NCBI GenBank assembly: GCA_028681135.1
Contig: JAQUJC010000002.1
Location: 21,892-85,891, forward strand
Direction of reading: 5' to 3'
Source: Kiritimatiellia bacterium
GTDB taxonomy: Bacteria; Verrucomicrobiota; Kiritimatiellia; CAIQIC01; Lenti-01
DNA: 64,000 nt
This document shows, one piece after another, positions 1,252 to 58,783 of the stretch; position 1 is the stretch's first letter; each line of letters begins with the position of its first letter. Both the position numbers and the translations under genes were made by a program. The notes under the pieces are model-generated. The model was not told where the DNA came from and did no database searches. It worked only from the letters and a program-made list of their open reading frames with translations.

Positions 1252-1394
1252 TTTTCCACGCTATGGAAAACTTTTTTGGGAATTTTCCACGCTATGGAAA
1301 ACTTTTTCGGAAATTTTCCACGCTATGGAAAACTTTTTCGGAATTTTTCCACGCTATGGAAACTTTTTTCGGAATTTTTCCACGCTATGGAAAA
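1252..1394. repeat. family-A array 1: five direct copies of TTTTCCACGCTATGGAAAA at an exact 31-bp period
   Basis: TTCCA starts at 1254, 1285, 1316, 1347 and 1378. The spacers are near-identical (CTTTTTCGGAAA). Confidence 0.95.
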
Positions 1395-4131: not shown

Positions 4132-4629
4132 TTACCGAGTACTCATGAGGATGAAGAAGTAGAACACGAGGGAGACCAGGGCGACCAAGCCCGTGATAGC
4201 GAGGACAAAGTACCAGGTGCCGCGACGCTCCCGGGGGCGGGCACCAAAGGGCGAGATGCTGGCAAAATCCTGTGGGGCCGACATGGCACCATTTGCCATT
4301 TCGGCATTGGCATCGGTATAGCGGGCGCTGTCGGCAGACAGTTCTGGAGCATCGAAGAGAAACTCAATGGAGCCCAATTGGATCAAGTCCTTGTGATGGA
4401 GAGCGGATTCCTTGATATCGCGCGAATTGACGCGAGTGCCATTGGTGGAGTCCAAATCTTGAAGCACACACGAGTCCCCGCTATGAAGAATACGGCAATG
4501 GTGGCTGGAAATGGTGGGGTGGTCCAGAAGGATCCGGTTATCCGCTTTGCGGCCAACCGTAATTTCGCCTTGCTCGATGGGGAATTCGCGCCCCTTAAAA
4601 TCGCCGGACATGCCGCTAAGTTTGGCCAT
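4132..4629 (-). CDS. FHA domain protein with C-terminal transmembrane anchor
   Basis: ATG at 4629 (MAKLSG). The FHA core is GRKADNRILLDHPTISSHHCRI...DLDSTNGTRVN. The C-terminus WYFVLAITGLVALVSLVFYFFIL is hydrophobic. The longer ORF to 5361 has no support. Confidence 0.75.
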   Translation of the reverse strand: MAKLSGMSGDFKGREFPIEQGEITVGRKADNRILLDHPTISSHHCRILHSGDSCVLQDLDSTNGTRVNSRDIKESALHHKDLIQLGSIEFLFDAPELSADSARYTDANAEMANGAMSAPQDFASISPFGARPRERRGTWYFVLAITGLVALVSLVFYFFILMSTR

Positions 4630-17614: not shown

Positions 17615-17650
17615 TTTTCCATACTGTGGAAAACTATTTTTCCATAGCCC
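17615..17650. repeat. family-A array 4: one full copy TTTTCCATACTGTGGAAAA plus a half copy
   Basis: TTCCA starts at 17617 and 17640. The half copy encodes the last codons (MEK) and the TAG stop of the GH20 gene on the minus strand. Confidence 0.85.
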
Positions 17651-19400
17651 CCAGGTAGTGGCGCATGGGTTCAAAGCCACGCTGGTGCAGATCGAGGAGT
17701 CCGTAGGGTTGGCTTTCGGCAAACCAAAGGGGGGCGGTCGCCTTTTCGAGTTCATCGAGGAGGGGGCGGGTGGCGGAGGCGGGGGCGCCGGAGGCGACGC
17801 GGGCACTGAAGTGCAGAAACCGACAGGCGAGGGCTAACTGGGCGTGGTCAGTTTCGTCGACCCATTCGCTGGGGGTGAGCTTGGAAAAGGCGTCGGCCCA
17901 GGTCGCGGCGTGCTCCGCTACCTCACTCGCGTGGACGGGATCGGCAGACGGAGGGATGTCCCGCAACGGCCAGAAGGGCCAGGCGGCCAAGACGTCGGCG
18001 ACGGAGCCGGCACGCGAAAACAAGTCAGCGGGATGCGCATCGGGCGCGTCGAAGAGCATCCGCGAGAAGGCACGATCGAAGGTGGGGCCGGCGTCGTTCA
18101 ACGGATTCCAGGCGAGTTGCGCGCCAAGCGCGAGACCATGGAGTGCGCAGGGGGGCATATTGAAGTGGCCGTAGTCGCCCCAGTCGGTGGTGAGCACCCC
18201 CTGTGCGCCGAGGGCGTGGCCGGTGCGGGCATAGGCCACCAGAACGGCGCGGGCCTCTTCCACCGCATTGAAAAGGCGTCCGAATCCGCGCACCGATGGG
18301 CAGACAACGGTGGGGAGGCCGCGAGAGATGAAGGCGTCGCATTTTTCAAAATGGTTGCCGGGAAAATAGGCCCAGTCGAGGATGGCGCAGTCATCGGGCA
18401 GCTCGGAGATCGCGGCGGGATGTTGCAGGAGCATATCGCCCCAGAGCATGAGCGATTTACCGTAGCCCGCGACTTCTTTGTGAAGAAAGCGGATATGGTC
18501 GAGGTACTGGCGGGCCAGGTCAGCGGGGGAGGCGTCGGGGGTCCGGCGACCCAGGTCATGGGTCTCGTCGCCGCAGAGATTAAAGCGCGAGGAGGAAAAA
18601 CAGGGTAGAAATTCGGCCAGGATACGCCGCAACAGGTTTTGGGCGTCGGGGTCGCGGGAGTACAGCGTGGCGCCGCGCAGGCGCTGGAGCCAGGTGGCCT
18701 CTTCCCACGAGGGCGCCGGGAATTCGGCCTCGGCGAGATCGCGATAGCGGGGCAGCGAGAGAAGGCGCCCCAGATGCCCAAAGCAGGTGAAGGAGGGCAC
18801 CAGTTCGATGAAGTGCTCGCGGCAAAAGGCGTCCAGCATGATCATGTCATCGGCGTCGACCGCGTCGCCGTCGCCGGCAATGTCGGGGTCGAATTGGAAT
18901 CGGAAGGGGTGCTCAAAATAGAGCTGGAGATGATTGATCTTGAGCGCGGCGAGGAGCTGAATGCGGCGCTTGAGCATGGCCAGGCGCGGCACTCGGCCGC
19001 GGCTGATGTCGAGATAGTATCCGCGCAGAGGCCACACGGGGGCATCGTCGATTTCAAGGCAGGGGAGGGCGACGCCGGACTGCCGGCGAATATGGCGCAG
19101 CGTTTGGAGGGCGTAGAAGTGCCCGGCGGCGTCGGAAGCGGCGATGTGGACGCCCTCAGGGGTGATACGGAGCCTATAGGATTCAGGCGTGCCCGGGACG
19201 TTGACCAGACGCAGGTCAGGATGGGGCGGATGGTGGGCGATGTGATGAAGACCGGGGAAAAGCGTGTGGAGCATCTTGCCAACGCGCGGGTCCAGGGAGG
19301 CGGGCGTGCCGATGGTAGGCAAATCGGGCAGCGTGAAGGTTCCGGGATGGACCTGGAGGTGGGTGGGGGTGGGCAGAAACTGAATCATGGGCGTAGGCAT
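17634..19400 (-). CDS. glycoside hydrolase family 20-like (beta-N-acetylhexosaminidase-like)
   Basis: IDDAPVWPLRGYYLDISRGRVP...LKINHLQLYFEHPF is GH20 catalytic-domain-like. An N-terminal GH20b-like domain is present. Confidence 0.7.
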   Translation of the reverse strand: MPTPMIQFLPTPTHLQVHPGTFTLPDLPTIGTPASLDPRVGKMLHTLFPGLHHIAHHPPHPDLRLVNVPGTPESYRLRITPEGVHIAASDAAGHFYALQTLRHIRRQSGVALPCLEIDDAPVWPLRGYYLDISRGRVPRLAMLKRRIQLLAALKINHLQLYFEHPFRFQFDPDIAGDGDAVDADDMIMLDAFCREHFIELVPSFTCFGHLGRLLSLPRYRDLAEAEFPAPSWEEATWLQRLRGATLYSRDPDAQNLLRRILAEFLPCFSSSRFNLCGDETHDLGRRTPDASPADLARQYLDHIRFLHKEVAGYGKSLMLWGDMLLQHPAAISELPDDCAILDWAYFPGNHFEKCDAFISRGLPTVVCPSVRGFGRLFNAVEEARAVLVAYARTGHALGAQGVLTTDWGDYGHFNMPPCALHGLALGAQLAWNPLNDAGPTFDRAFSRMLFDAPDAHPADLFSRAGSVADVLAAWPFWPLRDIPPSADPVHASEVAEHAATWADAFSKLTPSEWVDETDHAQLALACRFLHFSARVASGAPASATRPLLDELEKATAPLWFAESQPYGLLDLHQRGFEPMRHYLGAMEK

Positions 19401-24481: not shown

Positions 24482-24997
24482 AGGGGTCAGTCCTATGAAA
24501 TGATGTATTGGGAATAATAAGAAGGGAGACGATGTGGGGGAATGGGGACATGCCAAGGAAACCAAGAGTCGAATATGCAGGGGCCGTTTATCATGTAATG
24601 AGCCGCGGGAACCGCCAACAAGCGATTTTCCGAACAGATCGAGACCGAGAGACATTTCTAGATACCTTAGAGGAGGCGTGCGGGCGTACCGGCTGGAAGG
24701 TTCATGCATTTGTATTAATGGGGAATCATTACCATCTGCTTCTGGAAACACCGGAGGCCAATCTTGTGGTGGGTATGCAATGGCTGCAAAGCACATATAC
24801 CAAGCGATTCAATGCTCATCATCGCGAGTGGGGTTATGCGCGTTTCCCAAAGTCAAATACATTAAAACATAGGACTGACCCCTCCTGTTTGCAATGGCTG
24901 CAAAGCACATATACCAAGCGATTCAATGCTCGTCATCGCGAGTGGGGTTATGCGCGTTTCCCAAAGTCATATACATTAAAACATAGGACTGACCCCT
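24482..24997 (+). mobile_element. decayed RAYT/IS200-like unit bracketed by inverted AGGGGTCAGTCCTATG repeats
   Basis: Left copy at 24482-24497. Inverted copies CATAGGACTGACCCCT at 24868-24883 and 24982-24997. The adjoining ATGTATT is also inverted. Confidence 0.65.
24550..24834 (+). pseudogene. N-terminal 95-aa fragment of a Y1/HUH (IS200-like, RAYT-type) transposase
   Basis: MPRKPRVEYAGAVYHVMSRGN...NHYHLLLETP aligns by eye with aa 1-95 of the intact copy at 57769. Similarity stops after RFNAHHREWG, before the catalytic Tyr region. Confidence 0.75.
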
Positions 24998-25004
24998 CCT
25001 GTTC
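24777..25004 (+). repeat. 2 x 114-bp tandem duplication (3 mismatches)
   Basis: GCAATGGCTGCAAAGCACATATACC... starts at 24777 and again at 24891. Each copy ends with the inverted repeat CATAGGACTGACCCCT. Confidence 0.95.
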
Positions 25005-25698: not shown

Positions 25699-26496
25699 TT
25701 ATCGGCGGGGTTGGGCGTCGAGAATTCTGATGGCTTCGATGGCGGTGTGGATGGCCTCTTCCACGCCGACCTTGGCGATGATGGGTGCGTCGTCGTAGGT
25801 CAGGCCAATGGTGGCCAGGATTTCGCCGGCGCGGACGCGGCGAATACTGGCGACAACAAAGAGCGCGCCGGATTCCATCGATGTCGAGATGACGTTCGAG
25901 CGGTACCAGGCATTCCATTTGGCGTCGATGTCCTCACGGATGGGGATGTCCTTGTCCTCGATGAAGAAGGCATCCTTGCAGTGGCCAATGCCGGTATGGG
26001 CGGGGAATTTCAGTTTAGCGGCGGCTTGGCGCAGGGCCAGCGACACGTCGAGGTCGGCCACGGCGGGATAGGATAGCGGTACGTACTGGCGGGAGGTGCC
26101 TTCCTCGCGCACGGCACCGGTGGTGATGCACAGATCGCCGAGTTTGACCTCGCGCTGAAGAGCGCCACAGGTGCCGATGCGAATGAAGGTATCGGCACCG
26201 CACTTGATCAGCTCTTCGACCGCGATGGCTGTGGAGGGGCAGCCGATGCCGGTGGAGCAGCAGGAGACCTTGATGCCATCGACGGTGCCGGTGAATGTGC
26301 GGTACTCGCGGTTATAGGCGACTTCCTTGGCATTATCAAAGAAAGACGCAATCAGCGGCACGCGGCCGGGGTCGCCCGGTAGCAATACATAGCGGCCCAC
26401 ATCGCCGGGCTTTAGGTGCACGTGATACTGCATTTCAACAGTGGCCTTCTTCGGTGCCTTCTTGCTGGTCGTTTTCTTGGATACCTTTTTTGCCAT
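25699..26496 (-). CDS. uridine/nucleoside phosphorylase (PNP_UDP_1 family) with Lys-rich N-terminal tail
   Basis: VLLPGDPGRV, YRTFTG..DGIKVSCCSTGIGCPSTAIAVEEL, IRIGTCGAL. The 21-aa tail MAKKVSKKTTSKKAPKKATVE precedes an alternative start at 26433. Confidence 0.8.
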   Translation of the reverse strand: MAKKVSKKTTSKKAPKKATVEMQYHVHLKPGDVGRYVLLPGDPGRVPLIASFFDNAKEVAYNREYRTFTGTVDGIKVSCCSTGIGCPSTAIAVEELIKCGADTFIRIGTCGALQREVKLGDLCITTGAVREEGTSRQYVPLSYPAVADLDVSLALRQAAAKLKFPAHTGIGHCKDAFFIEDKDIPIREDIDAKWNAWYRSNVISTSMESGALFVVASIRRVRAGEILATIGLTYDDAPIIAKVGVEEAIHTAIEAIRILDAQPRR

Positions 26497-26628
26497 GGTG
26501 GATTCCTTATGGTGAGGATTGGATCTTCTTATTGCAAATTATGTTCTCACGCAAAGACGCGAAGACGCCAAGATAATCAAGTGACTGAATTGTGGTGTCT
26601 TTGCGGCTTGGCGTGAGACTCCTTCTGA

Positions 26629-27465
26629 TTAAAGTTTTTCCTTGGCCAGTTCCTGCCAGAATTGGAGGGTGAGTTTTTTCATGTTGGCCATGGCCTTTTG
26701 GGAGGTCTCGAAGACCTCCTGATGGGTCAAGGGCTGGTCCAGGATACCGGCGGCCATGTTGGTGATGCAGGAGAGGCCGACGACCCGCAGCCCGGCGGCA
26801 TTGGCGAGCATGGCCTCAGGCACGGTGCTCATGCCCACGGCATCGGCACCGAGGGTACGCCAGGCACGGACTTCGGCGGGAGTCTCATAGGTCGGGCCGG
26901 TCCCGGCGAAATAGGTGCCGTGGCGCAGGGCGACATCGGTTTTTTCGCCGGCGCGCGAAAGGACTGCGCGCAGCTTGCGGTCATAGATGAACGACTGGTC
27001 CGGGAAGCGGGCCCCCCAGAAGGGATCGTGAGCGCCCAGCAGGGGGGTGACGCCCATCATATTGATATGGTCGTCGATGATCATCAGGTCACCGGGGGTC
27101 CACTCGGGATGGGTGCCGCCGGCGGCATTGGTCAGGAAGACGGCTTTGGCGCCGAGGCTTTTGAGCAGGAAGAGGGGGGTGGCCACGGCTTCCCAGCCCA
27201 CGCCCTCATAGACGTGGCGGCGGCCCTGGAAAATGAGGGTTTCGATCCCGGCGGATTTGCCCCAGACCAGACGTCCGGCATGACCCGCGACGCCCGCCTT
27301 GCCCAGGCTGGGAATCTCTTCGTAGGACAGGACGCCGAGAGGGTCAAATGCGTCGGCAATATCGCTGAGGCCGGAGCCGAGGATCATGCCCAGTTGGGGG
27401 GTGGCCTCGGGGAAGGCTTTTTTGACAGTAGCGAGAGAGGCATCGAGGGGGTCACGGTTAATCAT
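26629..27465 (-). CDS. punA: purine nucleoside phosphorylase (PunA/MTAP trimeric family)
   Basis: GMILGSGLS, VAGHAGRLVWG, QGRRHVYEG, GPTYETPAE, VGMSTVPE. Confidence 0.85.
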   Translation of the reverse strand: MINRDPLDASLATVKKAFPEATPQLGMILGSGLSDIADAFDPLGVLSYEEIPSLGKAGVAGHAGRLVWGKSAGIETLIFQGRRHVYEGVGWEAVATPLFLLKSLGAKAVFLTNAAGGTHPEWTPGDLMIIDDHINMMGVTPLLGAHDPFWGARFPDQSFIYDRKLRAVLSRAGEKTDVALRHGTYFAGTGPTYETPAEVRAWRTLGADAVGMSTVPEAMLANAAGLRVVGLSCITNMAAGILDQPLTHQEVFETSQKAMANMKKLTLQFWQELAKEKL

Positions 27466-27529
27466 GGGGTGGGGCTCCTTTCAATGAGCAATGAATAGGT
27501 TTAATGAAGGACGAGAATGGGGGCTGGAG

Positions 27530-27685
27530 TTTTCCACAGTGTGGAAAACTGTTTTCCATAGTGTGGAAAAAACAGGCCGGAATTTTCCATAGCGTGGAAA
27601 ACCCATGCGATATTTTTCCACAGTGTGGAACCTTTTTTTCCATAGCGTGGAAACCTCACATAACAGCGTTCCATAGCGTGGAAAC
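27530..27685. repeat. family-A array 2: six copies of TTTTCCAYAGYGTGGAAAA
   Basis: TTCCA starts at 27532, 27554, 27585, 27616, 27638 and 27669, giving spacings of 22, 31, 31, 22 and 31 bp. It lies between the deoA stop and the punA start. Confidence 0.95.
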
Positions 27686-27694
27686 CCCCGGGCA

Positions 27695-29005
27695 TCACCC
27701 GGTGATGCGGGCGACGATGGGTTTGGGGGCGGTGACGGGGTCGGCGACGATGTCGAAGGCCTGTTGGATGTGGGCCATGGCCTGATCGAGTTTGTCCTGC
27801 GCGGTCGCGTGCACCGTGACGAGCGGCTGGCCTGCTTCAACCTTATCGCCGATCTTGGCGAGGCCCGAGGTGCCGACGGCATAGTCGATGACATCATCGG
27901 TCTTCTGGCGTCCGCCCCCCAGCACCAGGACGGCGCGGCCGATGGACTCGGCATCCACCTTGGCGAGGTAGCCAGACGTGGGGGCGGGGTAGGGGGTGAC
28001 GATGGCGGCCTGCGGCAACTTGGAGAGGTCGTCGAGGCTCGAAACATCAGCACCCTGGAGGGCGGCCATTTGCTTGAATTTCTCGAAGGCGGCGCCCGAA
28101 GCGATGATCTGCTCGAGGTTGCCGCGGGCCTCTTCGACTGTGGCGGCCTTATGCCCAAGCACGAGCATTTCGGCAGTGAGGGCCAGGGTGATATTCATCA
28201 GGTCGCTAGCGGCGTGTTGACCTTGCAGGCATTCGATGGACTCGATGACTTCCAAGGCGTTGCCGGCGGTGCGGCCGAGGGGCTGGTTCATATCGGTGAT
28301 GAGCGCGACCATCCCTTTGTTCATGGCCTTGCCAACGCGGACCATCGACTCGGCGAGAGTGGTGGCATCTTCGATGGTGCGCATGAAGGCGCCCGCGCCC
28401 CACTTGACGTCGAGGACCAGTGAATCAATGCCTTCGGCCATCTTCTTGCACATGATGGAGGCGGTGATCAGGGCGATGGAGGCGACGGTGCCGGTCACAT
28501 CGCGCAGCGCGTAGAGCTTTTTATCGGCCGGGGCGATTTCGCCTGTTTGGCCGATCATGGAGAAGCCGCATTGCTGGATGATGTCGATGAACGCCTTTTC
28601 GGAGAGATTCGTATTGAAGCCGGGGATGGCTTCCAGTTTGTCGAGGGTGCCGCCGGTGATGCCAAGGCCCCGGCCGGAAATCATCGGCACGGCCAGTCCG
28701 GCGGCGGCGGCGAGCGGGGCGAGGATCAGCGAGACCTTGTCGCCGATGCCGCCGGTGGAATGCTTATCGACCTTGGGCCCGGTGAGTGACGAGGTATCGA
28801 CCATAGCGCCGGAGTGCATCATGGCATCGGTCAGGACGGCGATTTCCTCGGGCGTCATGCCCTTGAGGTAGATCGCCATGGCCATGGCGGCCATCTGGTA
28901 GTCGGGGATGGTTCCCTGGGTGTAGCCATTGATGAAAAAGCGGATTTCCTCATCGGTGAGGATGTGGCCGTCGCGTTTCTTTTCGATTATCCATTGGGGG
29001 ACCAT
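27695..29005 (-). CDS. deoA: thymidine/pyrimidine-nucleoside phosphorylase
   Basis: IIEKKRDGHILTDEEI, DYQMAAMAMAI, DKHSTGGIGDKVSL. The ATG at 29005 is preceded by GAAGGAG, so it is preferred over TTG 29020. Confidence 0.9.
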   Translation of the reverse strand: MVPQWIIEKKRDGHILTDEEIRFFINGYTQGTIPDYQMAAMAMAIYLKGMTPEEIAVLTDAMMHSGAMVDTSSLTGPKVDKHSTGGIGDKVSLILAPLAAAAGLAVPMISGRGLGITGGTLDKLEAIPGFNTNLSEKAFIDIIQQCGFSMIGQTGEIAPADKKLYALRDVTGTVASIALITASIMCKKMAEGIDSLVLDVKWGAGAFMRTIEDATTLAESMVRVGKAMNKGMVALITDMNQPLGRTAGNALEVIESIECLQGQHAASDLMNITLALTAEMLVLGHKAATVEEARGNLEQIIASGAAFEKFKQMAALQGADVSSLDDLSKLPQAAIVTPYPAPTSGYLAKVDAESIGRAVLVLGGGRQKTDDVIDYAVGTSGLAKIGDKVEAGQPLVTVHATAQDKLDQAMAHIQQAFDIVADPVTAPKPIVARITG

Positions 29006-29146
29006 GGGGGACTCCTTCAATTTTCAATGTCCACTATTCAATATCCAAAGATACAATCCGGCTCGGCGGGGACGCTTCGCCCACCCTTCGATCCGGTGGG
29101 AGGGCGAACCCTCCGGGTGAGCCGGGGTTTCGGGATTCCTCCGCTG

Positions 29147-30325
29147 CTACACAAAGGACGCACCTCGCGGCATGGCCGGGATGCCAAAGAAGCGGGCGAG
29201 GGATTGAGCGATGTCGTAGAAGCCACAGCGGATGCCGAGGTTGTCACCTGGCTGGCCGGGTTGATACACCAGCAGCGGCACGTATTCGCGGGTGTGGTCG
29301 GTGCCCTGAAAGGTGGGGTCGTTGCCGTGGTCGGCGGTGAGAATGAGCATATCGCCTTCCTTGAGGAGCGGCAGGTAGGTCGCCAGCCACTGGTCGGTCA
29401 GTTCGAGACTATGCGCATAGCCCTTGGGATCACGGCGGTGGCCGTAGAGCATGTCATAGTCGATGAAGTTGGCAATGATTAGGCCTGAGTCCTTCTCCTG
29501 GGTCCATTTCTCGACCAGCGCCTGGGAATCGAGGTTGTTGCCGGTGTGATTCGATTCGGTGATGCCGCGGTGGGCGTAAATGTCTTCGATCTTGCCCACG
29601 GCATAAACGGGAATATCTTTCTCCACCAGGCGTTCGAGGACGGTCGGCTCGTCGGGCAAAAAGGCGAAATCCCGACGATTTTCGGTGCGCTTGAATGCGC
29701 CGGGTTGGCCGATGAAGGGGCGGGCGATGACGCGCCCGACGCGCAGCGGGTCGCACAGGCGGCGAGCTATTTCGCAGTAGCGATAGAGTTCGGGGACGGG
29801 CACGACATCTTCATGAGCGGCGATCTGGAAGACGCTATCGGCCGAGGTGTAGCAGATGAGCGCGCCGGTTTCGAGGTGCTCGGGGCCGAGTTCGTCGAGA
29901 ATGACGGTGCCGCTGGCGGCCTTGTTGCCGATGAGGTTGCGGCCGGTTTCCTTTTCAAACGCGGCAATCAGCTCGGGGGGAAACGAGTTTTCAAGGGGGA
30001 AGTTGTGGAAGCCGGGATCCACTTCCAGGCCGGCGATTTCCCAATGGCCGGTGATGGTGTCTTTGCCATCGGACATTTCGCGCATGGCGCCAAAGGAGGC
30101 CATGGGGGCGTCTACGGGGTCGACGCCCAGGATGGTTTGGGCGGGGCGATGGTGCAGGAGCGGGGGGATATTGCCCAGGCCCATCTGTTGGAGGGTGGGC
30201 AGGTGGACGCCTCCCGTGGCAGTGGCAAGATTGGCGAGGGTCGAGGACCCCTCATCGCCATATTCTGCGGCGTCGGGCGCGGCGCCAATGCCCACGGAGT
30301 CGAGAATGATCAGGATGGCTTTCAT
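29147..30325 (-). CDS. deoB: phosphopentomutase
   Basis: MKAILIILDSVGIG, TGHWE, ADHGNDPT. The length is typical for DeoB. Confidence 0.9.
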   Translation of the reverse strand: MKAILIILDSVGIGAAPDAAEYGDEGSSTLANLATATGGVHLPTLQQMGLGNIPPLLHHRPAQTILGVDPVDAPMASFGAMREMSDGKDTITGHWEIAGLEVDPGFHNFPLENSFPPELIAAFEKETGRNLIGNKAASGTVILDELGPEHLETGALICYTSADSVFQIAAHEDVVPVPELYRYCEIARRLCDPLRVGRVIARPFIGQPGAFKRTENRRDFAFLPDEPTVLERLVEKDIPVYAVGKIEDIYAHRGITESNHTGNNLDSQALVEKWTQEKDSGLIIANFIDYDMLYGHRRDPKGYAHSLELTDQWLATYLPLLKEGDMLILTADHGNDPTFQGTDHTREYVPLLVYQPGQPGDNLGIRCGFYDIAQSLARFFGIPAMPRGASFV

Positions 30326-30421
30326 CTGTGGCCTCTTTCTTTAGTGCGTTACACGCGGTGGGGGAACATCATTACACAACATTATTCACTATCAGCGTTC
30401 ATTAAGCAAATGGCGCGGTTG

Positions 30422-30447
30422 AAATAAAAACCCCGTTTTCACGGGGT
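30422..30447 (-). terminator. intrinsic terminator overlapping the stop codon of the last BMC-P gene
   Basis: The minus-strand RNA is ACCCCG-UGAAAA-CGGGGU followed by UUUUAUUU. Confidence 0.55.
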
Positions 30448-30717
30448 GTTCTCTTCGATGATGGTATCGACTATGCCGACAATGACACTGCGCACCGGCC
30501 CGTTTTTAGATTCTAAAATCTGACGTCCTCCATTTCCTTCGTTGAGGACGAGAACGGTTTCGCCCGGCCCCGCGCCGACGCAATCAATGGCGACCAGGTA
30601 GTCATCGGTGATCGTGCCATCCGGTTTGATCTGCTCGACAATCAGCAGTTTGCGGTGGTCATAAAAGGGGTGACGAATGGTGGAATGGATATTGCCGATG
30701 ACGTTGCCGAGGATCAT
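30439..30717 (-). CDS. BMC-P pentameric vertex protein (EutN/CcmL family), copy 3
   Basis: MILGNVIGNIHSTIRHPFYDHRKLLIV...AIDCVGAGPGETVLV. ATGA overlap with the preceding gene. Confidence 0.8.
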   Translation of the reverse strand: MILGNVIGNIHSTIRHPFYDHRKLLIVEQIKPDGTITDDYLVAIDCVGAGPGETVLVLNEGNGGRQILESKNGPVRSVIVGIVDTIIEENTP

Positions 30718-31004
30718 GTGGGGCCCCCTTTCCACTGGGGGGCCTCGACGCCATCCACAATGCCGACAATGGCATGATCGACGGGGACAAACCACGGTTC
30801 GAGGAGCAGCGCGGCTTCGCGGCCGCCTTCGTAATAGATGAGTTCGTCGGGGCCGGCCATACGGGTGCCATCCGCACAGACGATGGGGGCCCCCTTGTCG
30901 GTGCCATCCTTGGCCAGGGGCTGAACCCAGAGCATGGGGACGCCTTCGAGGCCTTCGTAGACCTGAGTGGAGACCACCGTTCCTATAACTTTTCCTAGCA
31001 GCAT
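30714..31004 (-). CDS. BMC-P pentameric vertex protein (EutN/CcmL family), copy 2
   Basis: MLLGKVIGTVVSTQVYEGLEGVPMLWVQPL...VDHAIVGIVD. Confidence 0.8.
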   Translation of the reverse strand: MLLGKVIGTVVSTQVYEGLEGVPMLWVQPLAKDGTDKGAPIVCADGTRMAGPDELIYYEGGREAALLLEPWFVPVDHAIVGIVDGVEAPQWKGGPT

Positions 31005-31019
31005 GGCGATTCCTGTCGG

Positions 31020-31634
31020 TTAGGACGCAATTTCTCCCTCGAGGGTAAGCGGGTGGGCGAGATCGAAACGGGTGGAGACGGCAATTTGTGAAAGCAAGCC
31101 GTCGTGCGGCGACGTGAGCACGCGGTGCTGGGCGGGGATGCCGCGGGTTTCCAGAGAGGCCAGCGCGATATCCTGAGCGGCTTCGACATCGGTGAGATCG
31201 CCCTGCACAATGGCCAGCCCGCGGCCATCCATGCGCGGGTCGCCCGCACGGAATTCGAGCAACTCGACATTGACGCCCTTCATGGCGCGCTCAATGGCCT
31301 GGATGTTGCAGGAGACGGTGGGCGTTTCGAGAATCCACAGGGGGCCTTCGCCCATCTGGCGTTTGTTGCCCAGAATGGCCTCGTAGAGCGCGGGGTGGAT
31401 ATCGGGCAAGAAGGCGTCGTCGGCCACTTGCAGGCCGCCGTGGAAGAGGGCTTCTTCGTGGGCTTCGGCGACGGAGGCCGTGGTGCCGGCGAGCAAAATG
31501 AGAAACCGTCCCGCGCCGATGGTGCCGGAGCGGATCATGCCAATCGGTGACTTTTTGAGCAGGGCATCGGCGGCAAAGAGCCCGGCCGGCACGCTAGTCA
31601 TTTCGATGGAGGCAAAGGCGGGATGGGGTTTCAT
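31020..31634 (-). CDS. tandem-domain BMC shell protein (BMC-T-like)
   Basis: Two BMC-like halves: ASIEMTSVPAGLFAADALLKKSPI... and LWILETPTVSCNIQAIERAMKGVNVELLEF... Confidence 0.65.
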   Translation of the reverse strand: MKPHPAFASIEMTSVPAGLFAADALLKKSPIGMIRSGTIGAGRFLILLAGTTASVAEAHEEALFHGGLQVADDAFLPDIHPALYEAILGNKRQMGEGPLWILETPTVSCNIQAIERAMKGVNVELLEFRAGDPRMDGRGLAIVQGDLTDVEAAQDIALASLETRGIPAQHRVLTSPHDGLLSQIAVSTRFDLAHPLTLEGEIAS

Positions 31635-31637
31635 TAA

Positions 31638-33101
31638 TTAAACAATCCTAAAGTGGTCAACCATGGCACAGCGGCGCCAGCGGGAGAAACTACGGGGGGT
31701 AGTGATGCCTTCACCTGTGGGCGAGGCGATGGTGAAGGAGGTCGGTCCTTCGCCGCCAAAACCGATTCCAGCCTGCGAGCGGCCGTTTTTGACGAAAATC
31801 GAGCAGTTGCACTGGCGGGCCATCTTGGACAGCTTATCGATGTTCTTGGAGTGCATGACCGCGGTGTGGTAGTTGAAGCCTTCCATCTGCAAGCCGATGT
31901 CGATGGCGACGTCCACATTGGGTGCCCGGGTTATGGGCATGATGGGCAGCATCTGCTCGGTCCAGAGCAGGGGATGGTCCTCGGGCACCTCGACAATACC
32001 TAGGCGGGTGGTGGGGGGGGCGGAGATACCGATTTCCGCGAGAATCTTGTCGGCGTTTTGGCCAATCCATTTACGGTTGATGGTGGCATGTTCGCGGGGA
32101 CCGGCCATCTTAGAAAAGATGACCTGTTCCATGGCGGGGATTTTAGACGAGTCGATCAGGACCGCATTGTTGCGTGTCATGGCCTGGATAAGTTTGTCGG
32201 CGACCGAGGCGACCACGATGGTCTCCTTTTCCTCGACGCAAATCATATTGTTATCAAAGGACGCGCCCAGGACGATGTCCGCCGCGGCTTTTTCAATGTC
32301 GGCCGTTTCATCCACGACGACGCAGGGGTTGCCGGGGCCGGCGCAGATAGCGCGTTTGCCGCTGGCCATGGCCGCCTTGACGACCCCGCCCCCGCCGGTG
32401 ACAACGATGACGCGGATGCCGGGGTGCTTCATGAGGGCACCCGCCGTTTCGATGGTGGGCTCTGCCACGCAAACGCAGGTATTGGGCGGCCCGCCGGCGG
32501 CCATGACGGCCTTGTTCAACAAGGCGATGGTCTGGATGGAACACTGTTTGGCGGAGGGATGGACATTGAAGACAACGACATTGCCGGCGGCCAACATGCC
32601 GATGGCATTGCAAATGATCGTGGAGGTGGGGTTGGTGGTCGGGGTGATGGCGCCTAAAACACCCCAGGGGGCGGATTCCATCAGCGTCAGGCCGTGATCG
32701 CCCGTCCAGGCGATCGGGGCGAGGTCTTCGGTGCCGGGAGTTTTTTCAATGACGAGCTGGTTTTTGAGGATTTTGTCCTCGAAGCGGCCATAGCCGGTTT
32801 CGTCGGCGGCAGCTTTCGCCAGGGCTGTTGCATTTTCGCGCATCACGGCACGGATGCTCTGAATGACCTGCTCGCGTTTGGATAGGGCCAAACGGGCGAA
32901 GAGCGGGAAGGCGGCCTGGGCCGCGGTCACGGCTTCGTCAATGGTCTGAAATACGCCCAGGGCGCCATCAATGGCCGCGGGGGCGGTGGCCGGGGCCGGG
33001 GCCGCAGCAGGGGCCGCGACGGGGGCAGGGGCGGGCGAGCCACTGAGATCGCCGGCAATACGCCGGGCGATGGCTTCGATGTCTTGATCGGTCAGTTTCA
33101 T
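31638..33101 (-). CDS. CoA-acylating aldehyde dehydrogenase (PduP/EutE-like) with N-terminal encapsulation peptide
   Basis: The amphipathic MKLTDQDIEAIARRIAGDL is followed by a Pro/Ala linker (SPAPAPVAAPAAAPAPATAPAA). The AldDH core has ITPTTNPTST and a catalytic-Cys region. Confidence 0.85.
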   Translation of the reverse strand: MKLTDQDIEAIARRIAGDLSGSPAPAPVAAPAAAPAPATAPAAIDGALGVFQTIDEAVTAAQAAFPLFARLALSKREQVIQSIRAVMRENATALAKAAADETGYGRFEDKILKNQLVIEKTPGTEDLAPIAWTGDHGLTLMESAPWGVLGAITPTTNPTSTIICNAIGMLAAGNVVVFNVHPSAKQCSIQTIALLNKAVMAAGGPPNTCVCVAEPTIETAGALMKHPGIRVIVVTGGGGVVKAAMASGKRAICAGPGNPCVVVDETADIEKAAADIVLGASFDNNMICVEEKETIVVASVADKLIQAMTRNNAVLIDSSKIPAMEQVIFSKMAGPREHATINRKWIGQNADKILAEIGISAPPTTRLGIVEVPEDHPLLWTEQMLPIMPITRAPNVDVAIDIGLQMEGFNYHTAVMHSKNIDKLSKMARQCNCSIFVKNGRSQAGIGFGGEGPTSFTIASPTGEGITTPRSFSRWRRCAMVDHFRIV

Positions 33102-33150
33102 GTGATCTCCCGCAGGTGAAGGGGGGCAGCGGTAGGGGAGGGCTGCATTC

Positions 33151-33209
33151 CAGACGACACGAAGGCCGTCTTTCCAATAGCGGACGACACGAAGGTCGTC
33201 CTTCCAAAA
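33151..33209 (-). repeat. two tandem near-identical stem-loops in the BMC-P / aldDH intergenic spacer
   Basis: In the RNA sense: GGACGAC-CUUCGU-GUCGUCC and AGACGGC-CUUCGU-GUCGUCU. Each is followed or preceded by UUGGAA. Confidence 0.7.
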
Positions 33210-33254
33210 TCGCCGGCGTCAGCCTGAATGACTGGGATGCAGCCGTTCATTTCG

Positions 33255-33542
33255 TTATTTGGTGTACTTGGTTTTGCCATCGATATCCCAGGTATCCACG
33301 ATGGCCAAAATGACGGCGTCGACGGGTTTGTTCTGGGTCAGGGTGGTCTGGCGGGCCGATGAACCGGCCGCGGTCAGTACCATTTCGCCAGGGCCGGCGC
33401 CCATGGCATCAGCGGCGACAACAAACGATGGGGTTTCCTTGCCATCGGTGTCCACCAGGCGGACGAGGAGAAAACGGATGCCGTCCAAGACGGATTCTTT
33501 ACGAGTTGACACGACTGTGCCAACGACTTTGCCAAGATTCAT
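33255..33542 (-). CDS. BMC-P pentameric vertex protein (EutN/CcmL family), copy 1
   Basis: [31 protein letters not shown]...[14 protein letters not shown]. Confidence 0.85.
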
Positions 33543-33625
33543 GGGGACTCCGGGGCTAGACTACGGACAGGGGGGGGGGCGCAGCCGCACCCGGGAGGAT
33601 GCGGTCTGCGCCACAGTCGGGGGGC

Positions 33626-33919
33626 CTACTTGCCCTTGGCCGGGGCGCGGCCGAGCGGCAGCACCACTTCCAGGTTGGCGTGCGGGCGGGCGATCACATG
33701 GACAGCCACTACTTCGCCGACGCGTCCGCCGGCAATCTGCCCGGCGTCACAGGCGGCCTTGACGGCTGCCACGTCGCCACGAACGATGACGGAGGTAAAG
33801 CCCCCGCCGGTCTTTTCGTAGGTGACCAGTTCGACCTTGGCGGCCTTTACCATCGCATCCGCGGCTTCCACCGTTGCGGGGAAGGAGCGTGTCTCAATCA
33901 TTCCTAATGCTTCAGCCAT
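33626..33919 (-). CDS. BMC-H hexameric shell protein (PduA/EutM-like)
   Basis: [32 protein letters not shown]...[13 protein letters not shown]...VHVIARPH. Confidence 0.9.
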
Positions 33920-33965
33920 TTGTATACCTCTTGTTGTTGGTTGTGTTTTTCAAATTTGCCCGTCG

Positions 33966-34601
33966 TTAGTGGCGGGCGCCCGAGCCATCGGCACGCCCCG
34001 TGACCGCCTCAATGGCAGCTTCGGCAGCGCGGTAGGCAACATCGATGTCGCGTTCTTCGCCCCCGAGCCATATCCGTCCAAAAGAGCCGAACGTAATGAC
34101 TTCGAGGATGTTGATGTTGGCCGCTTTTTCGGCCTCGTTCGCGGCGAGCGCGGCGTAGGCGGCGGGGGCGACCTCCATAATATACAGCGATTGCCCGCGG
34201 GTGATCAAGTTGCCGTGGCGCATGCGGTTGATCAGCATCGTCTGGTGGTCATCGATGTTGCGAATGACCTGGGACGAATAGACCTTGGGCTTTATGCGCT
34301 CGCCTTCGTCAAGATCGAGGTCCTTGAGGATGGCCGCGCCCGCCTGGCGGACATCGGCCTGCGAGTCCGAGTGAATCTCGAGCATGCCGTAGAGGCGCTC
34401 GACGATCTGCATGCCGGGGCGCACATGGGTGGACTTGAGCGCCACGTCGGTGACCTGGTTAATGGCGATGCCCGGGGAAATTTCCACGAACAACGCGGCC
34501 TGCCCCTCGACGGGCAGGTAGCCTTTGGCCACGGTGGCCAGAAAAGAGGCAAACTGCGGTTGGAGGCTGTCAATGAATATGTATGTTCTGAGTTCTGCCA
34601 T
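33966..34601 (-). CDS. tandem-domain BMC shell protein (BMC-T-like)
   Basis: Two BMC-like halves: IFIDSLQPQFASFLATVAKG...LEIHSD and LYIMEVAPAAYAALAANEAEKAANINILEV... Confidence 0.65.
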   Translation of the reverse strand: MAELRTYIFIDSLQPQFASFLATVAKGYLPVEGQAALFVEISPGIAINQVTDVALKSTHVRPGMQIVERLYGMLEIHSDSQADVRQAGAAILKDLDLDEGERIKPKVYSSQVIRNIDDHQTMLINRMRHGNLITRGQSLYIMEVAPAAYAALAANEAEKAANINILEVITFGSFGRIWLGGEERDIDVAYRAAEAAIEAVTGRADGSGARH

Positions 34602-34614
34602 GGGGGCTCCTTGC

Positions 34615-35886
34615 TTATTTGCCGCCGGTAGCGGCGGCCGCTTCTTCCATCATTTTCACACTGTTGGATGATCCAATACGGGTGGCCCCGTTTTGAACCA
34701 TCAGCATGGCGTCGGCATAGGTGCGAACGCCACCGGAGGCCTTGACGCCGAGGCGCTTGGGCGCGACGGTGCGGGCCATGAGGGCGATGTCTTCGGCCTT
34801 GGCCCCGCCCTTGTTGAATCCCGTGGAGGTCTTGACGTAGTTGGCGCGGGCGCGCATGGACGCCTCGCAGGCCTTGACAATCTCGTCCGGGGTTAGCAGG
34901 CACGTCTCGATGATCACCTTGAGCAGAGCGCCGCCATCTGTGACGGACTCTGCCACCGTGCGGATGTCCTTCATGACGGCATCCCAATCGCCAGACTTCA
35001 CGAGGCCGACGTTGATAACCATGTCGATTTCCTTGGCGCCTTCGCGGATGGCGCGGCGGGCTTCCAGGGCTTTGATTTCCGGCGCGCCAGCGCCGAGGGG
35101 AAACCCGACGACCGCGCAAACCTTGACGGAGGAACCGCGCAAAATCTGAGCCACATAGCGCACCCACGAGGAGTTGACGCAGCAACTGAAGAAGTTGTGC
35201 TGGAGGGCTTCCTCGCACAACGTCTTAACGTCGTCTTTGGTGGCTTCCGGTTTGAGCAGGGTATGATCGATGATCCGCGCCAATTGGGCGGGTGTCAGGT
35301 TCTCTCCGCCCGCCGAGGTGGAGCCCCCCCCGCCGACAATTTGTTTCACGCGCTCGGCGATCCGCGCGACATCCTGGGTGCTGAGTTCCAATTTCATCTC
35401 CTTAATGGCGGTCATGACGGGGGTGCCCGCTCGTCCGCTTTCGAGGTCCTGGATCATTTGGACGCGCCGCAGGTGCCTCTCTTCGGTGCAGTCCGTGGCG
35501 ATGAAGACATCTGCGATGGCTTTCGCCTGTTCAAAAGTGGTTTGCCCGGACCCCAGGGTCAGGACGTTGGCCCCATTGTGCTCGCGAGAGTTTTTTGCCA
35601 GGACCTCATTATAGCAGGCGGCGGCGCGGACACCGGGAATTTTGTTGGCTGTCATGGCCGAGCCTATGCCCGCACCATCCACCATGATGCCGAGATCGCA
35701 CCGTCCCGAAGCTACCGCGCGGGCCACCGCCGCCGCAAAGACGGGGTAATCAACTGACTCTTTGGAATTTGTTCCGGCATCGGTCACATTATGTCCCTGG
35801 CCCTTGAGCCAATCCGACAACTGGGTCTTTAATTCAAAGCCACCATGGTCGGAGCCAACGGCAATTCTGCGCGGACGTGTAGACAT
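34615..35886 (-). CDS. fusion: RpiB/LacA-type sugar-phosphate isomerase + deoxyribose-phosphate aldolase (DeoC)
   Basis: aa 1-148: IAVGSDHGGFELK...GIGSAMTANK...REHNGANVL (RpiB). aa ~200-423: IDHTLLKPEAT, VCAVVGFPLG, IDMVIN, VKTSTGF (Schiff-base Lys region), VKASGGVR (DeoC). Confidence 0.85.
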   Translation of the reverse strand: MSTRPRRIAVGSDHGGFELKTQLSDWLKGQGHNVTDAGTNSKESVDYPVFAAAVARAVASGRCDLGIMVDGAGIGSAMTANKIPGVRAAACYNEVLAKNSREHNGANVLTLGSGQTTFEQAKAIADVFIATDCTEERHLRRVQMIQDLESGRAGTPVMTAIKEMKLELSTQDVARIAERVKQIVGGGGSTSAGGENLTPAQLARIIDHTLLKPEATKDDVKTLCEEALQHNFFSCCVNSSWVRYVAQILRGSSVKVCAVVGFPLGAGAPEIKALEARRAIREGAKEIDMVINVGLVKSGDWDAVMKDIRTVAESVTDGGALLKVIIETCLLTPDEIVKACEASMRARANYVKTSTGFNKGGAKAEDIALMARTVAPKRLGVKASGGVRTYADAMLMVQNGATRIGSSNSVKMMEEAAAATGGK

Positions 35887-52077: not shown

Positions 52078-52989
52078 TCAGGAGTCGGACATGTCCAGCG
52101 CATCGTCCGAGAACCGTGGTTTTGCCGTGTAGTGGGTCTTGAAGGGCTGCAAGCGGCTGCGCCCGCGTTCGGCGGCATTCTGGCAAGTGACGCACGTCTT
52201 GGCAAAGGGCAATGCCTTGAGGCGCGGACGCTCAATCGGCTTTTCACAGACTTGGCAGGTGCCGTATTCGCCCTCGTCGATCCGGCGAATAGCATCTTCA
52301 ATGGCGTAGACGGAGTCCTGGCGACTGGAGGCCAGGCTCAGCGCCAGTTCACGGTCGAAGTTTTCGGTACCATGATCGGCCATGTGTGTAGAGTGACTGC
52401 TGATGTCGTTGGTGGTATCGAGCGGCGAGCGCTTGAGATTATCGCCGGCCAAGGCGTTGATGTTGCCCTGGATCAGCTCTAGCTGCTTTTGAAGCATGGC
52501 CCGGAACGAGGCCAGTTCTTCTTTGCGGAAGGCGCGGCCCTTGGGGGCGTTGGCCCGAGCCTTTTTTGGGGGGGCCTTGGGGGCTTTAGCCTTTTTCACT
52601 GATGCGGTTTTGGGGGCTGCTGCTTTTTTAGGGACCGCTTTCTTTACCGCAGGTTTCTTGGCGGCGGTCTTTTTTACGGCAGACTTCTTGGCGGCAGACT
52701 TCTTAGCGGTGGTCTTTTTTACTGGAGGCTTTTTTGCGGCGGGTTTCTTCGTCGCAGGCTTCTTCGCCGCAGGCTTTTTTGCGGCAGGCTTCTTCGCCGC
52801 AGGCTTCTTCGCCACAGGCTTCTTCGCCACAGGCTTTTTTGCGGCAGGCTTTTTAACCGCGGTGTTTTTCGCCGTAGTCTTTTTTAGCTGCCCTTTCTTG
52901 GGGGATGTTTTTTTTGCCGCCGGTTTTGCTGCCTTACGGGAGGGGGAGGAGGATTTCTTCGTCGGTTGCGATGCGTTTGTTTTTGCCAT
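52078..52989 (-). CDS. DksA/TraR C4 zinc-finger protein fused to a ~170-aa histone-H1-like Lys/Ala/Pro repeat tail
   Basis: N-terminal (A/V)AKKP pentapeptide repeats. C-terminal coiled coil plus CQVCEKPI-N17-CVTCQ. Confidence 0.8.
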
Positions 52990-54101: not shown

Positions 54102-54142
54102 CAGCCGAACGACAACCCCCCATCCGTTTTCGTGCTTTCTAT

Positions 54143-54245
54143 TTTTCCATAGTGTGGAAAAATGGGGCTCGCTTTTTCCATGGTGTGGAAAAAAGACACA
54201 CCATTTTTCCATAGCGTGGAAACTTTTTTTCCACAGTGTGGAAAC
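54143..54245. repeat. family-A array 3: four copies of TTTTCCAYRGYGTGGAAA
   Basis: TTCCA starts at 54145, 54176, 54207 and 54229, giving spacings of 31, 31 and 22 bp. The array ends 21 nt before the pheS ATG. Confidence 0.95.
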
Positions 54246-57723: not shown

Positions 57724-58768
57724 ATCTTGAATCTTGACGGGGGGGGGAGAAGCCGTCATGATTGCGTCATGGCCAGAAAACCCAGGGCGTTGATCAAGGG
57801 CGGTATTTACCATGTGACCAGCCGAGGAAACGAACGGCAGGCCATCTTTCGAGACGACCAGGATCGGGAGCAGTTTCTTGAAAGCGTGGCGGACAGCGCG
57901 GTAATTGATCAGGTGCGCGTGTATTTGTATTGCCTGATGCCCAACCATTTTCACCTGTTGGTGGAGACACCGCAGGGGAATCTGGATCGCTTCATGGGCC
58001 GCCTGTTGACTGGCTACACGGTCTATTTCAATCGCCGCCACCAGCGTGTGGGACATCTGATGCAGGGACGCTATGGTGCGCAGGTCGTGGAAGGTAACGA
58101 TTACCTGCTGAAATTGAGTCGCTATATTCATCTCAATCCGGTGCAGGTTCATGATATCAGGGAATGGCCGTTGACTGAACGGCTGCGCCTGTTGCGGAAC
58201 TATCGCTGGAGCAGTTTCCGGGAGTATGCGGGCACCGCAAAGCTCAGCGGCTGGTTAGCCATGGGGCCGGTGCTGGCCATGATCACGGGAGGGAACGCGG
58301 CAAACCAGAATAAGACCTATGCCCATTATGTTGAATCAGGCCTGGCGAAGACCGACGACGATTTCGTCCGCCTGATGGATGAACGCGGGGTGGCTATCGG
58401 GTCGGATAGCTTTATCGAAACCATAAAAAATCTGCATGGACAGAAGGCAGCCGAATCTCTGAAACGCGAAGATGTGTCGTTCCGCCAGATACGAATCCAC
58501 AAAAGCGTAACGGAAGTGGAAGCCGCCGTTCAGGAGATCATCGGAGATCGCTGGGGGCAATTCGAGGCCTATAAAGCAGGGCGGGTGGTGCGCGGATTCA
58601 CGGCCTGGGCCTTGCGAAAATATGCGGGACTGACGCAGCGGGAAATCGCTGATCGCGTCCGCGTGGGAACAGGGTCGGCTGTCAGCCACATGATCAGAAG
58701 TGCGATGGCGTCGTCCGAGGTGGTGGCGTGGCAGCAGGCGCTAGATTCAAGATTCAAGGGCTGACCCC
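57709..58768 (+). mobile_element. RAYT-type unit: Y1/HUH transposase gene bracketed by inverted repeats (29 nt left arm, 26 nt matching)
   Basis: Left arm GGGGTCAGCCCTTGAATCTTGAATCTTGA (57709-57737). The right arm AGATTCAAGATTCAAGGGCTGACCCC (58743-58768) is its exact reverse complement over 26 nt. Confidence 0.85.
57769..58764 (+). CDS. REP-associated-type Y1 (HUH) transposase with C-terminal HTH domain
   Basis: IYHVTSRGN, HUH motif NHFHLLVET, catalytic Tyr context SRYIHLNPV. The C-terminal GLTQREIADRVRVGTGSAVSHMI is HTH-like. The stop lies inside the right inverted repeat. Confidence 0.8.
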   Translation: MARKPRALIKGGIYHVTSRGNERQAIFRDDQDREQFLESVADSAVIDQVRVYLYCLMPNHFHLLVETPQGNLDRFMGRLLTGYTVYFNRRHQRVGHLMQGRYGAQVVEGNDYLLKLSRYIHLNPVQVHDIREWPLTERLRLLRNYRWSSFREYAGTAKLSGWLAMGPVLAMITGGNAANQNKTYAHYVESGLAKTDDDFVRLMDERGVAIGSDSFIETIKNLHGQKAAESLKREDVSFRQIRIHKSVTEVEAAVQEIIGDRWGQFEAYKAGRVVRGFTAWALRKYAGLTQREIADRVRVGTGSAVSHMIRSAMASSEVVAWQQALDSRFKG

Positions 58769-58783
58769 AATGGGGAGGGGGCG

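Follow-up and report, generated by a model that had tools for sequence, protein, structure and literature searches.

In a stretch of 64,000 nucleotides from the genome of a Kiritimatiellia bacterium (contig JAQUJC010000002.1; "the window" below means this whole stretch), six 19-bp palindromic units lie between a pyrimidine-nucleoside phosphorylase gene (deoA) and a purine-nucleoside phosphorylase gene (punA). On balance we favor the view that this array is part of a family of repetitive extragenic palindromes (REPs) specific to the lineage, similar in kind to REPs and bacterial interspersed mosaic elements (BIMEs), and apparently undescribed. A literature search by motif, by taxon, and by the terms RAYT (REP-associated tyrosine transposase) and TIRYT yielded no description of these repeats, and Rfam gave no match at the arrays. 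The features with which the analysis begins are the following.

27530-27685, minus strand: the flagged array, six 19-bp palindromic units at 27530-27548, 27552-27570, 27583-27601, 27614-27632, 27636-27654 and 27667-27685
27695-29005, minus strand: upstream flanking gene, pyrimidine-nucleoside phosphorylase of the deoA/pdp type (Glycos_transf_3 and PYNP_C)
26629-27465, minus strand: downstream flanking gene, purine-nucleoside phosphorylase of the punA type (PNP_UDP_1)
29147-30325: phosphopentomutase-like gene of the same nucleoside cluster
25699-26496: second purine-nucleoside phosphorylase gene of the same nucleoside cluster

The palindromes sit exactly where a sequence-only reading of the window had placed them. 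Their TTCCA-N5-TGGAA cores begin at 27532, 27554, 27585, 27616, 27638 and 27669, and the spacings in coordinate order are 22, 31, 31, 22 and 31 bp, confirming for all six units that only these two distances occur. The location inside a nucleoside operon that was also claimed is a fair description, given the two flanking phosphorylases, the phosphopentomutase-like gene and the second purine-nucleoside phosphorylase. Read from deoA to punA on the minus strand, the array consists of two tandem modules, each made of a unit, a 12-nt spacer, a unit, 3 nt and a unit (spacings 31, 22 / 31 / 31, 22), with the terminal doublet adjoining punA. Units 4-6 are degenerate at the outer T/A positions (...GGAACC, ...GGAAAC and CGTTCC...GGAAAC).

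Such cores are greatly over-represented in the window, with 16 found against 0.11 expected from dinucleotide-preserving shuffles, and the 19-mer at up to three mismatches gave 27 strand matches where 0 were expected. Three further arrays of the same family had been reported (1252-1394, 17615-17650 and 54143-54245), and all three are present.

1252-1394, plus strand: five-unit array of uniform 31-bp period, unit TTTTCCACGCTATGGAAAA and spacer CTTTTTCGGAAA, without a terminal doublet
17615-17655, strand undefined: doublet remnant, with a full unit at 17615-17633 and a decayed second unit from 17637, 22 bp on
54143-54245, plus strand: four-unit array with spacings 31, 31 and 22, the doublet proximal to pheS

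In the first of these the spacer is repeated along with the unit (TRF 93%), and the last ends 21 nt 5' of the pheS ATG (54267). In the doublet remnant the CTA at 17634-17636 is at once the 3-nt spacer of the doublet and the TAG stop of a minus-strand GH20 gene, whose last codons are supplied by the decayed second unit, so that at 17634-17655 a repeat unit has been absorbed into the coding 3' end of this gene. Two relatives (comparison loci L087 and L040) carry a repeat at the position equivalent to the 17615 doublet.

To place these arrays in a wider context we gathered loci of the family, TTTTCCA-N5-TGGAAAA (hereafter C-type), by scanning one genome per species for the exact pattern. The motif was present at 114 or more loci, nearly all of them in metagenome-assembled genomes (MAGs) that bear the label Verrucomicrobiota, Kiritimatiellia, Lentisphaerae or Opitutia. 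Several C-type loci each were found in no fewer than 19 assemblies among the matches listed; homologues of the window's proteins carry the source name Kiritimatiellia. Because housekeeping genes in the repeat loci are 70-90% identical in DNA to those of the window, the repeat-bearing group would be roughly of family to genus level. The phasing is borne out in these relatives: among the matches listed the spacing is 22 bp in 65 cases and 31 bp in 37, the remainder being mainly sums or ±1 variants.

The C-type unit, when its center is left free, reads TTTTCCA, 5 nt, TGGAAAA, and the gap is always 5 nt. The arms are near-invariant over hundreds of units from many genomes, a perfect arm being lost in a minority of in-phase units (few gaps of 41-62 bp against 102 adjacent pairs among the matches listed). 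The center positions vary at 28-50%, chiefly by transitions and following YRSYR, with an anti-correlation between positions 8 and 12 (CG 160, CA 90, TG 83 and TA 14 among the matches listed). For this reason the center is not a conserved stem, and covariation of an RNA stem was rejected. One half-site of a C-type unit is usually "better" than the other; within doublets the orientations are CG in 32 cases, GC in 7 and the same in 58.

The linkers between units are only 3 nt or 12 nt long. The 22-bp spacing reflects a 3-nt AT-rich spacer, and the 31-bp module is polar, with TTTTCCACRCWATGGAAAA followed by a semi-conserved 12-nt spacer of approximate consensus AnTTTTCGCGAT. Arrays follow the grammar (unit + 12-nt spacer)n, unit, 3 nt, unit, and in 48 of the 52 informative arrays the doublet stands at the 3' end as judged by spacer polarity; the commonest forms among the matches listed are the 22-bp doublet, 41 bp long, and the 22-31 triplet, with 28 examples of each. 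Since the spacer modules are 3 nt and 12 nt, 31 is simply 22 + 9, and the suggestion that the two spacings stand for about two and three helical turns is not needed to account for them, although a protein could still bind the units on the same face. Beside a normal unit upstream of prfC (L277, 12665-12690) there is also a split palindrome, TTTTTCC-10 nt-GTGGAAAAA, with its arms intact and its center expanded.

Arrays both persist and turn over at orthologous sites, which hold 2-8 units. An array of 3-8 units lies upstream of pheS in six genomes (the window and five others), although the upstream genes differ, and 5' of these arrays stands a conserved GTTTTCGTGCTTTCYATT (window 54117-54142; L075, L076, L021 and L058), perhaps a promoter, a leader element, or a spacer-like module in decay. 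The deoA-punA junction measures about 30 nt and holds no array in L404, L443, L407 and L412, whose deoA genes are 82-88% identical to that of the window, nor in more distant relatives. It is filled in L414 (5 units), L405 (2) and L457 (4), and the terminal doublet always adjoins punA. With about 30 nt and no array in close relatives, the flagged array is a lineage-specific insertion into a tight junction, and its unit number has changed since that insertion; genomes with flanks 92-98% identical differ in their number of units. The terminal doublet is separated from the punA ribosome-binding site by a segment with some four TTCCA pentamers, direct repeats at 8-bp intervals (ATTCCA TTCTTCCA TCATTCCA ACATTCCA). 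This segment is seen in L414 (~1330-1375) and L405 (~4460-4505), is degenerate in the window (27466-27529), and is missing in relatives without the deoA-punA array.

The family also has a second dialect, first seen in another Kiritimatiellia MAG, where TTTTACGTA-S-TACGTAAAA units lie 31 and 22 bp apart. This sibling, TTTTACGT-N3-ACGTAAAA (T-type), is found at no fewer than 120 loci (at least), concentrated among the matches listed in four or five assemblies, where dialect was assigned per assembly and bins may be mixed. Its spacings among the matches listed are 31 bp (139 cases), 22 bp (18) and 32 bp (15), and its spacer consensus and architecture are the same as those of C-type. The cores of the two, CCA-N5-TGG in C-type and one containing TACGTA / ACGT-N3-ACGT in T-type, we take to be palindromes in the style of Type II restriction enzymes, PflMI/Van91I-like and SnaBI-like, respectively.

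Many orthologous intergenic positions carry C-type units in one genome and T-type units in another, with flanks 70-92% identical and several conserved on both sides; one assembly carries both dialects. T-type genomes have hardly any C-type units (6 in 849 kb among the matches listed), some of them in phase inside T-type arrays. Hybrid units, in which a C half and a T half are joined at the dyad center, number 13 in T-type genomes, compared with 4 pure C-type units (again among the matches listed), and typically stand where T-type modules give way to a terminal doublet of C-type; intermediate half-sites are rare. Stepwise point mutation of hundreds of units on this timescale is implausible, and we therefore infer a copy or conversion process with half-unit granularity. 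One specific form of it, the insertion of half-spacer-half segments at the dyad center, fits some hybrid arrays (L281 and L340; L103 and L356), never at both ends of one array, and is kept as a possibility. T-type arrays also occur at two loci labelled Bacteroidales (L362 and L396, CAZCWK). These share about 97% identity with contigs binned as Verrucomicrobia (L302), and their label is probably a binning error.

The gene context of the C-type and T-type repeat sets was obtained with a crude home-made gene caller, so that gene calls are approximate. Arrays fell between co-directional genes in 108 cases, convergent genes in 46 and divergent genes in 17, against 112.6, 28.7 and 29.7 expected from the background frequencies of the three gap types (p = 3e-4). 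They are intergenic, enriched in convergent gaps and depleted in divergent ones, and the statement that they always lie between co-directional genes holds within the window but not across the relatives. An array often starts 2-50 nt past a stop codon. Its polarity was not significantly related to transcription (33 same, 49 opposite; 22 versus 15 in an earlier test, also not significant) or, with an odds ratio of 1.6 (p = 0.17), to the local GC skew.

Among the roles that the sequence-only reading had offered, a REP-like element or mobile-element relic is the best supported in kind, the repeats being high in copy, intergenic, joined by fixed linkers, variable in unit number and absent from the junction in close relatives. 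Like the REPs and BIMEs of Enterobacteria, they are short imperfect palindromes of high copy number (16 units in the 64 kb of the window and hundreds in the sampled loci of at least 19 MAGs), located between genes at 3' ends and inside operons, and they form clusters with a few linkers of fixed length (3 or 12 nt) and a variable number of units (2-8) at conserved positions. The REPIN doublets of Pseudomonas (Bertels and Rainey) are similar in that the commonest form is two palindromic units with a short spacer (41 bp here), in their genome-specific populations and in their long-lived orthologous positions; they differ in that the units here are full palindromes, the orientation bias of doublets is partial, and no cognate single-copy RAYT was identified. 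The dRS3 repeats and Neisseria intergenic mosaic elements (NIMEs) share with our arrays repeats of about 20 bp, conserved inverted arms around a variable center, and a mosaic intergenic arrangement. The dRS3 repeat is ATTCCC-N8-GGGAAT and is the target of IS110-type recombinases and of phage integration, and NIME spacers are repeat units of 50-150 bp; here the linkers are 3 or 12 nt, and nothing comparable to the IS110 and phage targeting was found.

Several observations weigh against this assignment. REP palindromes carry a GTAG or CGTC tetranucleotide at one end (PMC3733652), whereas the units here end in TTTT/AAAA, the C-type having neither tetranucleotide and the T-type having GTAG at the dyad center only. 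The stems are AT-rich and weak (-4.5 to -6.9 kcal/mol for the RNA of a single unit, with 2-4 GC pairs) in a window of about 60% GC, unlike the GC-rich stems of REPs, and the arrays are mostly polar and head-to-tail with a terminal doublet, not alternating, and come in two discrete dialects with hybrid units. No mobilizing enzyme was found: the only Y1/HUH gene of the window, described below, has unrelated terminal inverted repeats (TIRs), and no RAYT flanked by units, the arrangement that defines a REPtron, was seen in the window or at the homologue locus of a CAYMTY genome. The comparative loci were all chosen by the motif itself and all come from fragmentary MAGs, and neither a clean empty/filled pair nor a target-site duplication was found at junctions that are too diverged. 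Finally, positional persistence and arm conservation could equally fit host-selected protein binding in place of selfish DNA. Since the family lacks both the end tag (GTAG/CGTC) and a RAYT with these repeats at its flanks, we file it as a REP/BIME-like variant and not as a member.

For such a variant we envisage that a 41-bp doublet would serve as the seed. Extension, by 31-bp modules, is one-sided, and arrays persist for long periods at gene ends. Units would be spread and homogenized by a copy process and not by point mutation, candidates being slippage, palindrome-templated switching, ectopic conversion, or a sequence-specific nuclease or recombinase; a sequence-specific reader would select the arms, and genome-wide homogenization could replace one dialect by the other. 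By analogy with REPs, unit hairpins in transcripts may uncouple or buffer the flanking cistrons. The arrays probably modulate operon expression, here between deoA and punA.

A bolder and rather doubtful proposal goes further, namely that the arrays are the substrate of a sequence-specific write-and-rewrite system, in which an enzyme or a reader-nuclease pair would recognize the 7-8-bp arms, cut or exchange at the dyad center, add units in register from the 41-bp seed doublet, and overwrite the genome with a new dialect when its specificity changes, positions staying fixed. If it were true, the arrays would represent mobile or "genome punctuation" DNA of a new class, separate from REP/RAYT systems, miniature inverted-repeat transposable elements and CRISPR, with a reader co-evolving with the repeats.

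Protein binding and RNA-hairpin roles may both be live options, and they are compatible with each other. In the first, the arrays would be cooperative platforms for a dimeric DNA-binding protein that organizes the nucleoid, insulates, or acts as a roadblock, one dimer occupying each 19-mer, the 22/31 spacing placing dimers on about the same helical face, and switches of dialect following shifts in the specificity of the reader. Invariant arms around a variable center imply a constraint that is sequence-specific and not purely structural, and the two discrete dialects with few intermediates, the persistence of arrays at orthologous positions across species, and spacings of about 2.1 and 2.95 helical turns all favor this proposal. 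Unit number is, on the other hand, highly variable and many arrays lie in convergent 3' ends, both unusual for operators, and the 31-bp spacing reflects an added spacer module. The reader might perhaps be the DnaA-domain-IV-like domain of a protein encoded after pheT, whose helix-turn-helix (HTH) domain the sequence-only reading had likewise singled out.

57769-58764, plus strand: Y1/HUH transposase of TIRYT type (TnpA-Y1 subclass 2.1-like), 331 aa, with H60, H62 and Y119 in SRYIHLNPV
57701-57734, plus strand: left 34-nt TIR, containing GGGGTCAG and unrelated to the array units
58743-58776, minus strand: right TIR, encoding the conserved C-terminal FKG and stop

The protein matches PF01797 (Y1_Tnp) with E = 1.6e-12, H60, H62 and Y119 being conserved, and scores 67 bits with the NCBIfam REP-tyrosine-transposase model, under the cutoff of 80. 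Its full-length predicted structure (pLDDT 87.5) has as best solved match the E. coli RAYT-REP complex (4er8, E = 4.9e-6). When the C-terminal domain was modelled alone, the top matches were DnaA domain IV (8btg, 3pvp and 1j1v; template-modelling (TM) scores 0.63-0.71, probability 0.97-0.99), with weak Foldseek E-values (0.1-0.65), and a sequence-profile search of this domain against the PDB returned generic HTH proteins only, so that the similarity rests on the predicted fold. The guess of a DnaA-domain-IV-like fold thus appears right at the level of the model; the suggested tie to the arrays did not materialize, the gene having its own, unrelated TIRs. These are 91% complementary and contain tandem CTTGAAT heptamers, the left one overlaps the end of pheT, and GGGGTCAG matches the TIRYT consensus GGGG[AT][CG]A[CG] (PMC6006769). 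Five homologue loci share the TIR start and occur in C-type and T-type genomes alike, and homologues lie in at least three gene neighborhoods, two of them syntenic with each other.

The segment 57701-58776 is a complete TIRYT-type element and apparently an ordinary one. It resembles TIRYT/TnpA-Y1 subclass 2.1 (Di Nocera 2013; Quentin 2018) in its Y1/HUH core, its long C-terminal HTH related to Bac_DnaA_C, its consensus TIRs and the lack of REPs beside the gene, and nothing notable differs; near genes of subclass 2.1 no REPs were found (PMC6006769). A partnership with the arrays in the manner of a RAYT was rejected on two counts. By adjacency, the gene has no units at its flanks, either in the window or at the homologue loci L273, L400, L206 and L277, the homologue in the repeat-rich CAYMTY genome has none within 21 kb, and a tblastn search of the protein against the 114 listed repeat loci gave a single partial match, 4 kb from a repeat. 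By covariation, the HTH of P0028 (T-type genome) and that of P0030 (C-type genome) are near-identical. Palindrome and TRF searches found no arrays near distant TIRYT homologues in other phyla.

For the protein platform, then, this domain is evidence of both kinds. The window does encode a fold predicted to be DnaA-IV-like, and for the HTH of its TnpA-Y1 subclass, related to Bac_DnaA_C, no DNA partner is known (PMC6006769). Its near-identity across dialects, the gene's own TIRs, the weak structural E-values with only generic HTH proteins in the profile search, and the array-free loci in other phyla count the other way. The link of this gene to the arrays is unproven and on balance weakened, and we regard the platform as a whole as rather unlikely. 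Directly 3' of the gene lies one for a 936-aa protein (58784-61594) with an AEP-TOTE primase, a ResIII/DEAD helicase and a DUF559/REase-like domain, the architecture of a TOTE conflict system.

REPs of E. coli act as terminators or as barriers to 3' exonucleases. An RNA-level role for the present arrays would make them hairpin blocks at 3' ends and operon junctions, serving as bidirectional weak terminators or 3'-exonuclease barriers, with the DNA pattern secondary. The enrichment in convergent gaps and the frequent start 2-50 nt past stop codons agree with this, as do whole-array transcripts, which form nested hairpins well below shuffles (z -4.5 to -7). A simple scan flagged terminator-like sites of hairpin and T-run inside the flagged array, and these are the units themselves, a T-run opening the 12-nt spacer. 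An intrinsic terminator was nevertheless rejected, the stems being weak and not GC-rich and the polarity of the T-run relative to transcription being 33 same and 49 opposite. Beyond the weakness of single-unit hairpins, an RNA role would lead one to expect compensated stem variants; each genome has instead one or two fixed arm sequences, without covariation at positions 8/12. Some arrays stand 20-25 nt 5' of the start codon of the essential pheS, and Rfam is silent. We consider such a role, taken as the primary one, distinctly unlikely. A sigma-70 promoter scan gave no match around the flagged array.

Dialects that follow receptor specificity are familiar from the DNA uptake sequences (DUS) of Neisseriaceae and the uptake signal sequences (USS) of Pasteurellaceae, and motifs of this sort would spread through the preference of a competence receptor and molecular drive. 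Our dialects are indeed lineage- and genome-specific and are replaced at orthologous positions in close relatives, and inverted pairs at gene ends resemble the DUS pairs of Neisseria. The units here are, however, almost exclusively intergenic, tandem and phase-locked with a conserved common spacer, whereas many DUS and USS are single and intragenic, and we hold an uptake function to be very improbable.

CRISPR arrays, which come with a leader and cas genes, have repeats of 23-50 bp and unique spacers of about 26-72 bp. With repeats of 19 bp, semi-conserved spacers of 3 or 12 nt, and hundreds of short arrays, the present family was rejected as a CRISPR system.

The similarity to DnaA boxes held in part. 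The perfect C-type half-site TTTTCCACA does fit TTWTNCACA, and PMC4674748 reports this sequence as the DnaA box of a cyanobacterium, which we count in favor of arrays that titrate or recruit DnaA; close pairing of boxes is a further likeness to the clusters at oriC, datA and the DnaA-reactivating sequences (DARS). Yet the consensus fits only 4 of the 12 half-sites of the flagged array and 8 of the 32 in the window, with none in array 1252-1394, and the variable positions 8 and 9 fall within its CACA part. The T-type half-site TTTTACGTA, which has the same architecture and replaces C-type at orthologous sites with TACGT cores, cannot fit the box at all. TTTT and C6 are common to both dialects, and by our own estimate a chance fit at the three other positions has a probability of about 1 in 64 per dialect. 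The copies are many and dispersed, without an origin context: a check of position against dnaA and the GC-skew switch, as had been proposed, found no dnaA among the annotated open reading frames (ORFs) of the window and no switch, the cumulative GC skew rising monotonically. With a misfit T-type core and only 8 of 32 half-sites fitting, DnaA titration is not the shared function, the DnaA-box look of the C-type dialect is probably incidental, and a datA- or DARS-like role is extremely unlikely.

Three further observations concern the window itself. A shell protein of a bacterial microcompartment (31020-31634), an aldehyde dehydrogenase (31638-33101) and an RpiB-DeoC fusion (34615-35886) adjoin the nucleoside-phosphorylase cluster, and this neighborhood (25699-35886) suggests a microcompartment-linked deoxyribose or nucleoside catabolic locus. 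A 114-bp tandem duplication (24776-25003) is present in 2.0 copies that are 98% identical and has a weak coding signal. The 15-bp tandem repeat TTCTTTGCGGCAGGC (52640-52884; about 14 copies, about 75% matches) probably encodes pentapeptide repeats within the minus-strand ORF 52078-52989.

At the practical level, such arrays break MAG assemblies, and they are a hazard for annotation, since spurious ORFs cross them and one real gene has its end within an array; a perfect match to a DnaA box in a repeat, moreover, need not imply DnaA. If confirmed, the REP/BIME-like family would add a well-defined set of repeats to a poorly studied phylum, that of Kiritimatiellia and relatives, which are common in anaerobic digesters and guts. 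Its evolution is unusually readable, with a strict register, a polar grammar, dialects exchanged at orthologous sites among genomes of 80-92% identity, and hybrids that pinpoint exchange at the dyad center. It would thus offer a natural system for how dispersed repeats are homogenized and what reads them, and sister genomes of differing dialect could reveal the protein.

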